Positions 3,738 through 11,724 of a DNA stretch of 64,000 nucleotides are shown here, piece after piece. Within the stretch, counting starts at the first letter, position 1; every line of letters begins with the position of its first letter. The notes beneath the pieces are model-generated. The model had not been told where the DNA came from. It ran no database searches and was given only the letters and a program-made list of their open reading frames with translations. Source of the DNA: Escherichia phage vB_Eco_mar004NP2. The translations under genes were made by a program, and so were the position numbers. The DNA is taken from sequence record NC_048205.1. One strand, written 5' to 3'.

Positions 3738-4052
3738 GTGGATCGAGCATTAAGACGTCATCACCGGCAACGTGTAAAGAACAACCGCAAGAAGTATTGG
3801 ACAGTCTTCCCACATGAAGAAAGCCCTAAACGGTTAGGTATTATCACTACTACTCCTTGTATCTGTTCTTGTTGGATGTGCGGGAATCCTCGCAAATACT
3901 TTAAGAATAGTAAAGCAGGGATGAAAACCTCGGAGATTAGGAAAATGGAAGCAATGATTACGGATATTTCAAATGATGAATTTGATGGCTTTGTAGGATT
4001 CGGAGAAGGAATTAGCTCAGGCTGTTTCGAAGATGTACGCCCCGATTTGTAA
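3738..4052 (+). CDS. hypothetical Cys-rich basic protein, 104 aa (GTG start)
   Basis: GTG start 6 nt after TAGGAGAAAT; followed by terminator. Confidence 0.45.
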   Translation: MDRALRRHHRQRVKNNRKKYWTVFPHEESPKRLGIITTTPCICSCWMCGNPRKYFKNSKAGMKTSEIRKMEAMITDISNDEFDGFVGFGEGISSGCFEDVRPDL

Positions 4053-4061
4053 TTAATAACA

Positions 4062-4097
4062 AACCCCAGCTATTGAATAGGTAGTCTGGGGTTTTTC
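4062..4097 (+). terminator. rho-independent terminator
   Basis: hairpin AACCCCAG...CTGGGGTT followed by TTTTT. Confidence 0.6.
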
Positions 4098-4173
4098 TGT
4101 ATACAGGTAGATAATTTATGTATAATAAAATTCATCCACATTAGGTTAATTTAAAAAACTTAATGGAGGTAAT

Positions 4174-4521
4174 ATGAGCCGTACTTATCGTAAACAATCT
4201 GGTGATCAGTGGTGGAAGTCTAAAGAACAATTCTCTCAAGAATATTCTTTCATCAAAGAAAATGGCTACTGGATTCGTGTTATTTATGCCAAATCTTGGG
4301 ACGACATCAAAAAAGAAATGAAGGAAGCAACCATTCGTAATGAGAAAAAGGATGGTTATAACTGGAATTCTGTTAGTAAGAATGTTAAGTGGCATTCTAA
4401 TAAAATGGTTCGTCAAGGGAATCGTCAAGAACTCCACCGCGTGATGAAAGATCCAGAAAATTACGACTATAATCGCGATCATGACATGCGTAAGCGTGGA
4501 TTATGGTGGTGCTACGACTAA
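4174..4521 (+). CDS. hypothetical protein, 115 aa
   Basis: ATG after GGAGGTAAT RBS. Confidence 0.55.
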   Translation: MSRTYRKQSGDQWWKSKEQFSQEYSFIKENGYWIRVIYAKSWDDIKKEMKEATIRNEKKDGYNWNSVSKNVKWHSNKMVRQGNRQELHRVMKDPENYDYNRDHDMRKRGLWWCYD

Positions 4522-6723: not shown

Positions 6724-7422
6724 ATGAGAATCATTTCTAAATTCGCAGATGTGTATGATTTGCAGAACAGTTTGTTTGATCCCGATCGTGTTTGGGAGCG
6801 TAAAACTGAAGAGTTACTAGTTAAGGTAACTGATGATGCAGAAAAGAACATTGTGCATACTCGCCAAGTATTTCGTGAGGGTTCACTATCTTTCCGTGGT
6901 GACTTCGAATACTTCGTAAACCCACTGTTTATTGCAGGTGAAGTTTACTGGCTACACGAGCTGTACTGCTGGCACCCAGCATTTAGTTTCAAAACGTTCA
7001 ACCTCGACACTATGTTCGATAAAATGGAAGAGATGGGATTGCATGCTCGCTCCTACTTAATGGATAAGAGTCGTGGAGATGTTCGTGAAACAATGCGTGA
7101 TTTGCTCGTTGAAGCAAAACCTAAAGCAGAACGTATCTTGTCCGAACTGCGTGTACCGATTGCATATGTGAAAGGTATTAAGAAGAACGATAACGATGAT
7201 GTTCGTAACTTCGTGATTCAGACTAACATTCGTTTCCATCAGTCAGGTATTCCGTGGCAGGAAATTGAAAGTAACTTATACCGTTTACACCAGATGATCG
7301 AGCAATATATCTGGGGCGTATTAGGAACCGGTGAACCAGATACTATTACCACTTCCGATAAGGATCGCTTAGCTGCATATGGATTTGATATTGTTACTTC
7401 TTTTAGGAATATGAAAAGATGA
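6724..7422 (+). CDS. hypothetical protein, 232 aa
   Basis: long ORF after promoter, RBS AATAGGATTAAAT. Confidence 0.6.
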   Translation: MRIISKFADVYDLQNSLFDPDRVWERKTEELLVKVTDDAEKNIVHTRQVFREGSLSFRGDFEYFVNPLFIAGEVYWLHELYCWHPAFSFKTFNLDTMFDKMEEMGLHARSYLMDKSRGDVRETMRDLLVEAKPKAERILSELRVPIAYVKGIKKNDNDDVRNFVIQTNIRFHQSGIPWQEIESNLYRLHQMIEQYIWGVLGTGEPDTITTSDKDRLAAYGFDIVTSFRNMKR

Positions 7423-7916
7423 TCAGTAAGGAAGAGCTAAGAAGGATGTTCGATTACCGAGATGATGGTAATCTTATCTGGAAACCCAGGGAAGGGGACG
7501 AACACTTTAATAAGATATTCGCCGGAACAGTAGCAGGATCTAGACAAAGTACAGGACATAGAGTAGTTGAGCTGTATAATGGTTCCCTAGCTATAGGTAC
7601 ACATAGATTAATCTATGCATGGCATACTGGAGAATGGCCAGAAATAGTTGACCATAAGGATAAAGACTCAACTAATGATAGGTTTGAGAACCTAAGACCT
7701 GCTACAAGATCTGATAACGCTTGTAATCAAAAAGTAAGAAGCGACAACCATTTAGGCGTTAAAAATATTCATAGAAAAACAAATGGGACTTACCAAGTAA
7801 GAATCACTAAACATGGTAAGCAAGTTTCGAAAACACTTAAGAGTTTGGAAGAGGCCATAGAATGGAGAGACGCCAAACTTAAAGAACTCCACGGTGAGTT
7901 TGCGAGTACAGGCTGA
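7419..7916 (+). CDS. HNH homing endonuclease with AP2-type DNA-binding domain
   Basis: HNH motif region HRLIYAWHTGEWPEIVDHKDKDSTNDRFENLRPATRSDNACN followed by AP2-like GVKNIHRKTNGTYQVRITKHGK. Confidence 0.65.
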   Translation: MISKEELRRMFDYRDDGNLIWKPREGDEHFNKIFAGTVAGSRQSTGHRVVELYNGSLAIGTHRLIYAWHTGEWPEIVDHKDKDSTNDRFENLRPATRSDNACNQKVRSDNHLGVKNIHRKTNGTYQVRITKHGKQVSKTLKSLEEAIEWRDAKLKELHGEFASTG

Positions 7917-8359
7917 TGTGGAAATGGTTTGTAGACTTAGTTTGGGATAATAAGATGTATATCCTGGGAGCAGGTCTAGCGATAGGCATCGGATTCGGTG
8001 CTTATCACTTAGTTAATAAGGTTGAGACTCTAGCAGGTGATCTTGCAGCAGCTACTAAAAAGATCTCTTCTCTAGAAACCTCCCTTAATAATGTGAGGGC
8101 TGAGAGTGAACTTCGTGAGACTCGAATGAATCAGTATTTCACAATGAATAATGTTTCGCAAGCAGATCTAGACAAGAAAATTAATCAGCTTGATAAAGCA
8201 CTTAGTCGTCAAGATATTATAGCTGCAAAGCCTGGATTGGTTACATTAATTGCTAAAAAGCAGAGTAAGGAGTTCGAGGAAAGATTAGCATGTTTAACTG
8301 GAAACTTGGAATACTGCTCGCAGCCGCAATCACAATCACAGGCTGTGCACAAGAAATAA
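7916..8359 (+). CDS. membrane-anchored coiled-coil protein (possible i-spanin-like)
   Basis: N-terminal TM helix then coiled-coil-like region; 3' end overlapped by a lipoprotein gene. Confidence 0.4.
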   Translation: MWKWFVDLVWDNKMYILGAGLAIGIGFGAYHLVNKVETLAGDLAAATKKISSLETSLNNVRAESELRETRMNQYFTMNNVSQADLDKKINQLDKALSRQDIIAAKPGLVTLIAKKQSKEFEERLACLTGNLEYCSQPQSQSQAVHKK

Positions 8360-8643
8360 AGCCAGAACCTACCCATGAACTACCAACAGCTCATGTGGAC
8401 TGGCCTAAAGGACTTCAACCTTGTAGCTTTGATTTCAAATTTGAAAAGAAATTAGCTACAAACGGTGAAGATGGTGTAGTAGTAGTCGTACCATATAAAG
8501 ATTGGAATATGTTGGCAAAATGCCGCGAGGCAGAATATTCATATATCTCACGACTGACAAGTATGGTTTGCTTCTACCGCCAAGATTTGCAAGAAAAACG
8601 TTGTTTAGTATATTATCCACCAATTAACAATAGGAAAGATTAA
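8290..8643 (+). CDS. lipoprotein (possible o-spanin-like), 117 aa
   Basis: signal peptide with lipobox ITGC; gene starts inside upstream ORF in another frame. Confidence 0.4.
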   Translation: MFNWKLGILLAAAITITGCAQEIKPEPTHELPTAHVDWPKGLQPCSFDFKFEKKLATNGEDGVVVVVPYKDWNMLAKCREAEYSYISRLTSMVCFYRQDLQEKRCLVYYPPINNRKD

Positions 8644-9395
8644 TGTCAGTATTAGTCGGTTTACATGGTGAAGCTGGTTCGGGAAAAGATACCGTTGCAA
8701 AATTAATTATCGATTGGTGTAATGACACGTATCCAACGTGTTTACCCCGTCGTTACAGTTTTGCCAAGCCCGTTTATGAACTTGCATCTGTAATCCTCGG
8801 TGTAACTCCAGAGTTTCTAGGAGAGCGCAGGGGAAAAGAGATTGACCAATGGTTTACGGTCACACAATCTCAATTGGAGCGAGCTAGAGACGTATGGTTT
8901 AAATACGGTATCGATAAGTTTGAAGACTTCTCGTACGTTTGGCCGATTTTTGAGGAAAAATATCTTAATCCTCAACAACTTATCTCAGAGAATAAAGAAG
9001 ACGGACTTTATAGTTTATTTATTTCTCCGAGAAAAATGTTACAGCTCGTAGGGACAGAGCTAGGAAGGCAGCTGGTACATGAACGCATTTGGCTCATAAT
9101 TCTGGAGCAATCCATCGCTAAAGACGACCCAGATGTCGCCGTAATAACAGATGTGAGATTCCCCAATGAAGGAGAGCTACTCAGAGAAACAAACCATTTA
9201 GATATGGATTCTTTGATAGTAAATGTAGTACCAGCTGAGCAGAAGTTCACTATTAAATCAGATCATCCATCTGAAAGTGGTATTCCTGCAAAATATATTA
9301 CTCACGAATTAGTTAATAAATTCGATGGTATCAATAACCTTAAACTAGAAGTTTATAACTTCTGTGACTTAGAGCTAGAACCACTAGTTGGATAA
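8643..9395 (+). CDS. deoxynucleoside monophosphate kinase (P-loop)
   Basis: N-terminal P-loop GLHGEAGSGKDT; size 250 aa matches T5-type dNMP kinase. Confidence 0.55.
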   Translation: MSVLVGLHGEAGSGKDTVAKLIIDWCNDTYPTCLPRRYSFAKPVYELASVILGVTPEFLGERRGKEIDQWFTVTQSQLERARDVWFKYGIDKFEDFSYVWPIFEEKYLNPQQLISENKEDGLYSLFISPRKMLQLVGTELGRQLVHERIWLIILEQSIAKDDPDVAVITDVRFPNEGELLRETNHLDMDSLIVNVVPAEQKFTIKSDHPSESGIPAKYITHELVNKFDGINNLKLEVYNFCDLELEPLVG

Positions 9396-10007: not shown

Positions 10008-10017
10008 GTAATTTTAA

Positions 10018-10047
10018 GCCAGGGTTAAGTACCCTGGCTTTTCTTTT
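10018..10047 (+). terminator. rho-independent terminator
   Basis: hairpin GCCAGGGT-TAAGT-ACCCTGGC plus TTTTCTTTT. Confidence 0.65.
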
Positions 10048-10109: not shown

Positions 10110-10138
10110 TTGAAATTTTCCTCCAAAATTAGTATAAT
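10110..10138 (+). promoter_or_regulatory. sigma70 promoter (-35 TTGAAA, 17 bp, -10 TATAAT) for the lysis cassette
   Basis: hexamers and spacing; followed by GAGGAGG RBS. Confidence 0.5.
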
Positions 10139-10163: not shown

Positions 10164-10820
10164 TTGGAAAAGTTCTTACAATTATTAACAGTACTGCTCC
10201 AAGAAGCGAAAGACCCAGCATCGCTTCTTAAACGTCTGCTAACTATCTTAGTTGCTGTCATTATTTTCTTATTTGTTAGTAATACTAGTGAAGTAATGTC
10301 ATTCTTAAAGACTTTTTCCACGTCTGCAGTTTTACAGGATTTACAAACCCAGAGGATAGATAACTTCCCTAATGTGGCGAGGGAAAAGAGCATGGTTCTC
10401 TTCTCTCAGACGGGTGCAGATGCTGTTTTTGTAGTCAAGTATAAACCAGATGCTATCAATGATTATTCCAATATTATTGCATGGGAAAGTAATGCGCAAT
10501 TAGATAGGGCTGACTTGGCCGATAAAGCGGTAAATAAAACGTCTGAATTATACAGACGTCATTTAGAGGGCTTTAACTACGCATCGGATTTAAGTGTAAG
10601 AGTAAATAAATATATGGGGTTAAATATACCTGCGTTTAAAAACGTTACTTTTAATTACATATACACTTGTCCATACTTCAATCTAAAAAATATCTATGCT
10701 GGGTACATTGGTATTGCTTGGAAAGATAATCCGGTAGATACAGCTGATTCTGAACAGTTCAAGGAATATTTAGCAAAGCTCTGTTCCCCACAACAGAGAT
10801 CTTTAGGTAGGTCAATATGA
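10164..10820 (+). CDS. holin (218 aa, TTG start inferred)
   Basis: TTG 7 nt after GAGGAGG; single TM helix (LLTILVAVIIFLFV); immediately upstream of endolysin; the track ATG at 10110 lies inside the promoter. Confidence 0.5.
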   Translation: MEKFLQLLTVLLQEAKDPASLLKRLLTILVAVIIFLFVSNTSEVMSFLKTFSTSAVLQDLQTQRIDNFPNVAREKSMVLFSQTGADAVFVVKYKPDAINDYSNIIAWESNAQLDRADLADKAVNKTSELYRRHLEGFNYASDLSVRVNKYMGLNIPAFKNVTFNYIYTCPYFNLKNIYAGYIGIAWKDNPVDTADSEQFKEYLAKLCSPQQRSLGRSI

Positions 10821-11230
10821 GTTTTAAATTTGGTAAAAATAGCGAAAAACAATTAGCTACCGTTAAGCCCGAGCTACAAAAAGTAGCTCGTAGGGCTTTA
10901 GAATTATCTCCGTATGATTTCACAATCGTGCAAGGTATTCGTACAGTAGCACAAAGTGCCCAGAACATTGCTAATGGTACTTCATTTCTAAAAGATCCTA
11001 GTAAAAGCAAACATATTACTGGGGATGCTATTGATTTTGCTCCATATATTAATGGCAAAATTGATTGGAATGACTTAGAAGCATTTTGGGCGGTTAAAAA
11101 GGCTTTTGAACAAGCTGGTAAAGAACTAGGCATTAAACTTCGTTTTGGTGCTGATTGGAATGCTTCAGGAGACTATCACGATGAAATAAAACGTGGTACC
11201 TATGATGGCGGTCATGTCGAACTAGTTTAA
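10817..11230 (+). CDS. endolysin, L-alanyl-D-glutamate peptidase type
   Basis: 137 aa with conserved His/Asp metal ligands (HITGDAIDF ... DGGHVE); matches size of T5 endolysin. Confidence 0.7.
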   Translation: MSFKFGKNSEKQLATVKPELQKVARRALELSPYDFTIVQGIRTVAQSAQNIANGTSFLKDPSKSKHITGDAIDFAPYINGKIDWNDLEAFWAVKKAFEQAGKELGIKLRFGADWNASGDYHDEIKRGTYDGGHVELV

Positions 11231-11307: not shown

Positions 11308-11724
11308 ATGTTTGCAGAACTATTCACTATGATGCTGCTAGGTATCTGGAAAATAAGTCTAGTAGTATTCGTTTTAATGATAGTCTTTACTATCATTGCA
11401 TTAACTACCCGAAATAGCTTATTAATAAAGGTTATTCACGGACTAGAGTATATAATTATGGGTTCATTCGGCGTTTGTAAATGCAATTGCCATAGAGATA
11501 CGAAATATTGTTGGTTATGGATGGAACTAGAGAATCCCATATCCATAGCTTTGGCTGTTTCATTCGGTATGATTCTTATGGCCCTTACTCTAGCATTAAT
11601 ACCTTTAATGTTAGCTGGGGGAGTTACAGCGTATTTCACCCTTTTCTCCCCGATACTTATGTACTCAATTTACCCAATAACTATGTATCTAGTTAGGAAA
11701 AGATTTATACATGCAGTAGATTAA
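11308..11724 (+). CDS. multi-pass membrane protein, 138 aa
   Basis: several hydrophobic helices; RBS GATAGGAGAAAG. Confidence 0.5.
   Translation: MFAELFTMMLLGIWKISLVVFVLMIVFTIIALTTRNSLLIKVIHGLEYIIMGSFGVCKCNCHRDTKYCWLWMELENPISIALAVSFGMILMALTLALIPLMLAGGVTAYFTLFSPILMYSIYPITMYLVRKRFIHAVD

Follow-up and report, generated by a model that had tools for sequence, protein, structure and literature searches.

Two overlapping genes at some distance from the holin and endolysin genes of Escherichia phage vB_Eco_mar004NP2 (NC_048205.1) raise the question of whether a T5-like phage encodes its spanins outside the lysis cassette, and whether such a location is out of the ordinary. We analyzed a stretch of 64,000 nucleotides of this phage (the window), for which an original prediction had read a 147-aa and a 117-aa open reading frame (ORF) as an overlapped i-spanin/o-spanin pair. 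The gene structure, signals, homology, and conservation described below are observations on the window and its relatives, and they bear this reading out: the two proteins are orthologous to T5.045 and T5.044, share the families PHROG 739 and PHROG 812 with PseT.3 and PseT.2 of T4, and fall within the T5 family of Kongari et al. (2018, PMC6139136). Judged by its homology to the T4 pair and by its architecture, the locus very probably encodes the two-component spanin of a T5-like phage. The gene pair is already catalogued, both in RefSeq and in the main spanin survey, and the finding is correct but ordinary; since the pair is listed in the T5 family of Kongari et al., it amounts to a rediscovery.

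Orthologues in T5 and relatives in T4

Over 2 kb spanning the pair, the window shows 100% identity to Salmonella phage EH4 (Epseptimavirus) and 96.6% identity to T5; this stretch has matches in 447 phage records, nearly all of them T5-like, and homologues of the pair itself occur in 540-582 phage records. The i-spanin is 98% and the o-spanin 100% identical to the T5.045 and T5.044 proteins, respectively, both of which are annotated as "Rz-like spanin" in the RefSeq record of T5 (NC_005859), where the annotators' notes refer to the T4 PseT proteins. Kongari et al. placed ten i-spanins and ten o-spanins in two families that both bear the name 'T5', with an overlapped two-component layout and a 70-bp overlap in T5 (PMC6139136). 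The window pair agrees with these families in orthology, in the 70-bp overlap, and in gene order, and its coordinates relative to hegF and dnk are identical to those of T5.

Both window proteins gave significant profile matches, to PHROG 739 and PHROG 812 (Table 1), and these are also the families hit by T4 PseT.3 (1.3e-37) and PseT.2 (5e-42). The relationship was also recovered by BLASTP against the Edwardsiella T4-like phage PEi26, in which the i-spanin matched PseT.3 (E 3e-7) and the o-spanin matched PseT.2 (E 3e-11). In T4, pseT.3/pseT.2 complement the lysis defect of lambda RzamRz1am, for which both PseT.2 cysteines are required (PMC6139136). Residues C94 and C105 of the window o-spanin align with the corresponding cysteine pair of T4 and PEi26, the pair that is essential in T4 PseT.2. 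Searches of Pfam (E <= 0.01) and NCBIfam returned no family for either spanin protein; Pfam includes models for Rz and Rz1. Sequence searches of the PDB with both proteins gave nothing meaningful, and no solved structure of a relative was found. We found no experimental test of a T5-family spanin pair in the searchable literature, and the function of the pair is therefore assigned from homology and architecture.

Records of T5-like phages are uneven at this locus, and many give both spanins as hypothetical. The EH4 record (OR413345) has no o-spanin CDS at 3891-4244 and calls the i-spanin hypothetical, the RefSeq record of IME260 is without an o-spanin CDS, and in the RefSeq record of LmqsSP1 (NC_104259; 1825-2523 and 3017-3442) the 'i-spanin' label sits on the T5.047 homologue, the true i-spanin being called 'hypothetical protein'. 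The present analysis has little discovery value and some practical value for the annotation of T5-like records.

Table 1 Features of the spanin locus and its surroundings, in window coordinates
Feature	Coordinates	Strand	Basis and remarks
HNH homing endonuclease gene (T5 hegF, F-TflVI orthologue)	7419..7916	+	Pfam HNH_3 1e-12; T5 annotation
i-spanin gene	7916..8359	+	ATG, 147 aa; T5.045 orthologue; PHROG 739 'Rz-like spanin' E 1.6e-37
Predicted TM segment, i-spanin codons 15-33, YILGAGLAIGIGFGAYHLV	7958..8014	+	Highest Kyte-Doolittle 19-residue window; sole hydrophobic stretch
Membrane-proximal helix, heptad coiled-coil-like, i-spanin codons 36-64	8021..8107	+	a/d pattern; helix in AF2 model
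Shine-Dalgarno-like GAGGA	8276..8280	+	9 nt before o-spanin ATG; within i-spanin CDS; read from sequence
o-spanin gene	8290..8643	+	ATG, 117-aa precursor; T5.044 orthologue; PHROG 812 'Rz-like spanin' E 3.5e-30
o-spanin lipoprotein signal peptide, residues 1-19 (predicted)	8290..8346	+	Pattern match; lipobox ITGC 8335-8346
Dual-coding overlap	8290..8359	+	70 nt; i-spanin residues 125-147 / o-spanin signal peptide
dNMP kinase gene (dnk)	8643..9395	+	Pfam DNMK
Intrinsic terminator-like hairpin	10016..10040	+	10-bp stem then T-run; matches T5-annotated terminator
Promoter-like site, TTGAAA-17 nt-TATAAT	10110..10138	+	11/12 consensus matches; inside T5-annotated promoter
Class III (T4 T-type) holin	10164..10820	+	Pfam Phage_holin_T 2.8e-112; T5.041 annotation
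Endolysin, L-alanyl-D-glutamate peptidase, M15 type	10817..11230	+	PHROG 465 1.1e-54; T5.040 lys, EH4 annotations

Two reading frames under constraint

The coordinates, lengths, and lipobox claimed for the 147-aa and 117-aa ORFs all hold, and the claimed overlap at the 3' end in another frame is real: the frames differ (7916 mod 3 = 2 versus 8290 mod 3 = 1), and 70 nt are common to both ORFs. Both cysteines of the i-spanin (C126 and C134) are encoded within this overlap. The genes are also tightly joined to their neighbors, with one base common to the TGA stop of the HNH gene (7419-7916) and the i-spanin ATG, and one base common to the o-spanin TAA and the ATG of the dNMP kinase gene (8643-9395). 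Met14 (7955) was considered as an alternative start of the i-spanin and rejected, because relatives with other upstream genes keep a similar tail of ~13 residues (xxKxxxxxxWxxK) ahead of the membrane segment.

For nucleotide diversity, T5, the window, and 28 IMG/VR loci supplied 26 distinct sequences with the overlapped layout. In its own frame, the i-spanin gene varied mostly at third positions (0.155, versus 0.040 and 0.015 at first and second positions), as did the o-spanin gene (0.189 versus 0.053 and 0.039). Mean diversity in the overlap was 0.045, compared to 0.070 and 0.094 in the flanking coding parts, the lowest of the non-mosaic segments, and within it diversity at third positions of the o-spanin frame dropped to 0.021, as a double constraint would predict; much greater variability was confined to the mosaic stretch of the first 14 i-spanin codons. 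As judged from these codon-position patterns, both frames are under purifying selection. The overlapped layout is kept in 24 of the 28 IMG/VR loci, in a Klebsiella Sugarlandvirus whose proteins are 35-44% identical (88-nt overlap, lipobox IASGC), and in a Providencia Priunavirus (49-nt overlap).

Predicted envelope topology of the two proteins

The i-spanin is predicted to consist of a short N-terminal tail, a single transmembrane (TM) segment, a helical periplasmic domain, and a cysteine-containing C-terminal tail. The N-terminal TM helix and coiled coil of the original prediction correspond to one hydrophobic segment at residues 15-33 and a heptad pattern at residues 36-64. With a Kyte-Doolittle 19-residue mean of 1.55, the TM segment scores slightly below the usual rule of thumb of 1.6, because it is rich in Gly; it is nearly invariant among 28 related loci. 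A single N-terminal segment of this kind, found here by hydropathy, is what characterizes the i-spanin of a two-component spanin, and an N-in/C-out topology is predicted. Hydrophobic residues occupy 89% of the a/d positions in residues 36-64 and 20% of positions elsewhere, a value reached by 0.4% of shuffles. A single-sequence AlphaFold model of modest confidence (pLDDT 62.6) is almost all helix, with helices at residues 2-77, 82-97, 106-114, and 118-127, and agrees with a largely alpha-helical periplasmic domain with coiled-coil propensity. Residues 14-65 (7955-8110) also gave a match to the NCBIfam FtsL model, at 24.1 bits against a cut-off of 50 (E 2.1e-5). We rejected homology to FtsL and read this match, which is below the cut-off, as reflecting the bitopic-plus-coiled-coil architecture that the two proteins have in common.

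The description of the 117-aa protein as a lipoprotein with the lipobox ITGC is upheld by matching to a PROSITE-style pattern: the N-terminus MFNWKLGILLAAAITITGC (written up to the cleavage site, MFNWKLGILLAAAITITG/C) fits a predicted signal peptidase II site at LLAAAITITG/C, with Cys19 as the predicted lipidated residue and a predicted mature lipoprotein of 99 residues. According to the +2 rule for sorting of E. coli lipoproteins, Asp at position +2 is an inner-membrane retention signal; the o-spanin has Ala, not Asp, after the lipid-bearing Cys, and delivery to the outer membrane is therefore predicted. A five-way alignment with the homologues from Klebsiella, Providencia, Edwardsiella, and T4 shows no variation at G18 and C19 and no Asp at +2 in any of the proteins; a W-P motif and the C-terminal C94/C105 pair are likewise unchanged throughout this alignment. 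Beyond the signal peptide, the o-spanin continues with a Pro-rich linker and a region with four further cysteines (C45, C78, C94, and C105), so that intermolecular disulfides could draw on these four in the mature protein and on C126 and C134 in the i-spanin. By hydropathy, the 117-aa lipoprotein has no hydrophobic segment past its signal peptide, and the combination of lipobox and C-terminal TM segment in one protein that defines unimolecular spanins of the T1 gp11 type is not found here. The single-sequence AlphaFold model of the o-spanin is of low confidence (pLDDT 50.3), and at pLDDT 62.6 and 50.3 the two models are too uncertain to serve as a basis for fold searches.

Genomic context

The original prediction had placed the pair between an HNH endonuclease gene and a dNMP kinase gene, ~1.5 kb from a holin-endolysin cassette at 10164-11230, and had called this location unusual. 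Pfam, PHROG, and the T5 annotation identify the neighbors as claimed, and the distance from the o-spanin stop to the holin start measures 1520 nt, but the location is not unusual: gene order is conserved in every Demerecviridae locus examined, in four genera, and the T4 spanin genes are likewise unlinked, not adjoining t and e (PMC6139136). The order of spanin pair, dNMP kinase, Clp-like protease, terminator, promoter, holin, and endolysin is the same in T5, EH4, LmqsSP1, all 28 IMG/VR loci, Klebsiella phage IME260, and Providencia phage PR1. In the T5-like family, spanin genes normally lie apart from those for holin and endolysin. The terminator-like hairpin closes the transcription unit of the spanin genes, dnk, and the Clp-like protease gene, and the promoter-like site at 10110-10138 precedes the holin-endolysin operon; with both signals lying in between, in agreement with the T5 annotation, the spanin genes belong to the unit directly upstream of the holin-endolysin operon and are read in the same direction. 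In the lambda spanin model, complexes are kept inactive by the intact peptidoglycan until the endolysin acts, and early or separate expression of the spanins is compatible with the published model.

About one in three of the related loci sampled carry the HNH neighbor hegF, and most lack it; it is a mobile element, incidental to the lysis system and not part of it. Where it is lacking, the i-spanin ATG overlaps the 3' end of the T5.047 homologue by ~44 nt, and the first ~13 i-spanin residues differ (MDLIQKLLSGIWRGKW… or MIKNFISSLWQGKW…), with the membrane segment unchanged. Across related loci (L011 and L020-L036), these first ~13 codons (7916-7957) occur in three versions that track the presence of hegF upstream. 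At the other end of the gene, an endonuclease gene of ~700 bp (PHROG 681) is inserted exactly at the spanin overlap in 4 of the 28 IMG/VR loci and in LmqsSP1; a separated spanin layout was described for Shivani and phiR201 by Kongari et al. (PMC6139136). Both ends of the i-spanin gene thus appear to be insertion points of homing endonucleases, and the locus neatly illustrates how a dual-coding gene can take such insertions at its two ends and stay functional.

The 232-aa T5.047 homologue (6724-7422, +; PHROG 4243, no Pfam match) is conserved directly upstream of the i-spanin gene, apart from hegF. Within the dNMP kinase gene, AGCGC at 8824-8828 (+) is the sole RGCGC match between 1588 and 12370 and coincides exactly with the T5 'major DNA single-chain interruption' (T5 22336/22337; nick consensus Pu/GCGC); a nick site of the T5 type therefore seems to have been retained some 180 nt downstream of the spanin genes. 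A 138-aa ORF at 11308-11724 (+), 78 nt past the endolysin stop, is orthologous to T5.039, which is annotated with four TM domains, and its position makes a lysis-related role possible. Farther along, the region 30500-34500 matches the T5-like receptor-binding tail protein, a superinfection-exclusion/receptor-blocking protein, and the dmp/left-terminal-repeat region, from which it follows that the window passes straight from the left end of the genome into its right end; this suggests a permuted assembly with only one copy of the terminal repeat.

A model for lysis and its alternatives

From the homology to T4 PseT.3/PseT.2 and the published spanin model, we infer localization, complex formation, disulfide bonding, and membrane disruption as follows. 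The i-spanin would be anchored in the inner membrane by its N-terminal helix, with its mostly helical domain reaching into the periplasm, and the o-spanin precursor would be lipidated at Cys19, relieved of its signal peptide, and, since its lipid-bearing Cys is followed by Ala, delivered to the outer membrane. Their C-terminal regions may then bind each other to form a periplasm-spanning complex threaded through the peptidoglycan mesh and stabilized by disulfides. Once the T-type holin released the M15 endolysin and the wall was degraded, the complexes would be freed to disrupt the outer membrane, most likely by fusing it with the inner membrane, the route put forward for lambda Rz/Rz1, and lysis would be completed. 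Conceivably, the T5-type pair works unlike both studied models, with the Cys-Cys tail (CLTGNxxxC) of the i-spanin providing a distinct disulfide-locking step and/or the pair having an additional early envelope role. That tail is absent from T4 PseT.3 and encoded wholly in the overlap, so a distinct locking step could form, and the fact that the pair shares its transcription unit with early nucleotide-metabolism genes, and not with the holin and endolysin genes, could reflect an early role in the envelope; the sequence differences are the only support found, and we give such a departure a slim chance.

Readings outside lysis by spanins fare less well. T5-like phages encode small outer-membrane lipoproteins for receptor blocking (Llp, cited in PMC4342426), and the pair is transcribed with early metabolic genes and not with the holin and endolysin, so the lipoprotein might be imagined as a receptor-blocking or superinfection-exclusion protein akin to Llp or Cor, overlapped by a functionally unrelated membrane protein. 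However, it falls in PHROG 812, as T4 PseT.2 does, and has the cysteine pair that is essential in that protein, its overlap with a PseT.3 homologue is conserved, and an annotated superinfection-exclusion/receptor-blocking gene lies elsewhere, beside the receptor-binding protein gene at ~30.5-34.5 kb, all of which makes this reading highly improbable. Equally far-fetched is a role for the pair in regulating the T-type holin, as an analogue of the T4 antiholins RI/RIII and with no part in outer-membrane disruption. The phage does have a holin of the T4 type (Pfam Phage_holin_T 2.8e-112), and the 147-aa protein is bitopic with a periplasmic domain, like RI, but its homology is to PseT.3 and not to RI, and an antiholin would leave no role for a lipoprotein partner with the conserved PseT.2 cysteine pair; homology to PseT.3 and PseT.2 is what makes the idea so unlikely. 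Finally, the 117-aa ORF is unannotated in the 100%-identical EH4 record, as might be the case if one or both ORFs were chance open frames and not genes. Each frame, however, has coding-like codon-position diversity and a strong PHROG match, and even a Klebsiella phage at 35-44% identity retains the ORFs, lipobox, and overlap; on this evidence chance frames may be regarded as excluded, with next to no probability remaining for them.

Comparison with the spanins of lambda, T4, and T5

Like lambda Rz/Rz1, the window pair would combine a type II inner-membrane protein that has a coiled-coil periplasmic domain with an outer-membrane lipoprotein encoded in another frame, and would thus fall in the same functional class. 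Rz1 is fully embedded in Rz, whereas the window genes merely overlap, and Rz/Rz1 directly follow S and R in one cassette. No sequence homology to Rz/Rz1 was detectable, nor did either protein fall in a Pfam spanin family, and what links the pair to lambda is therefore function and architecture, making it an analogue and not a demonstrable homologue.

The likeness to T4 PseT.3/PseT.2 is closer, with the same PHROG families (739/812), a location away from the holin and endolysin genes in both phages, a KPxL motif in the i-spanin, and a WP motif and the C-terminal cysteine pair CxYRxxLxExxC in the o-spanin, though protein identity is only 21-30%. The two systems differ in that the T4 genes have a separated architecture (PMC6139136) and PseT.3 lacks cysteines, while in the window the genes share 70 nt and two cysteines occur in the i-spanin, carried on a C-terminal extension of ~25 residues (CLTGNxxxC) that is encoded inside the overlap; the window o-spanin also has two extra cysteines, C45 and C78. 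In alignments, the extension, as CLTGNxxxCS, is found in i-spanins of the T5 lineage (the window, Klebsiella IME260, and Providencia PR1) and is absent from the T4 lineage. Separated genes and a cysteine-free i-spanin, the marks of the T4 subtype, are not seen in the window pair, and the 70-nt overlap together with the two i-spanin cysteines therefore assigns it to the T5 subtype.

Within the T5-like phages, Shivani, phiR201, and LmqsSP1 carry these proteins, 87-97% identical, at an unchanged genomic position. In these phages, unlike in the window, the spanin genes are separated by the ~700-bp endonuclease gene insert and lie 666 nt apart (see PMC6139136 for the layout), with the i-spanin C-terminus (…CLSGSLEYCRDERKNK) and the o-spanin N-terminus (MHKIK…) rewritten. 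T5 itself is among the closest of the known systems: T5.045/T5.044 have the same lengths (147 and 117 aa), the same 70-nt overlap, the same flanks (hegF upstream and dnk downstream), and the same distance to the holin-endolysin genes, and differ from the window pair only by a few substitutions in the i-spanin, such as R2W and N11D in its N-terminal tail.
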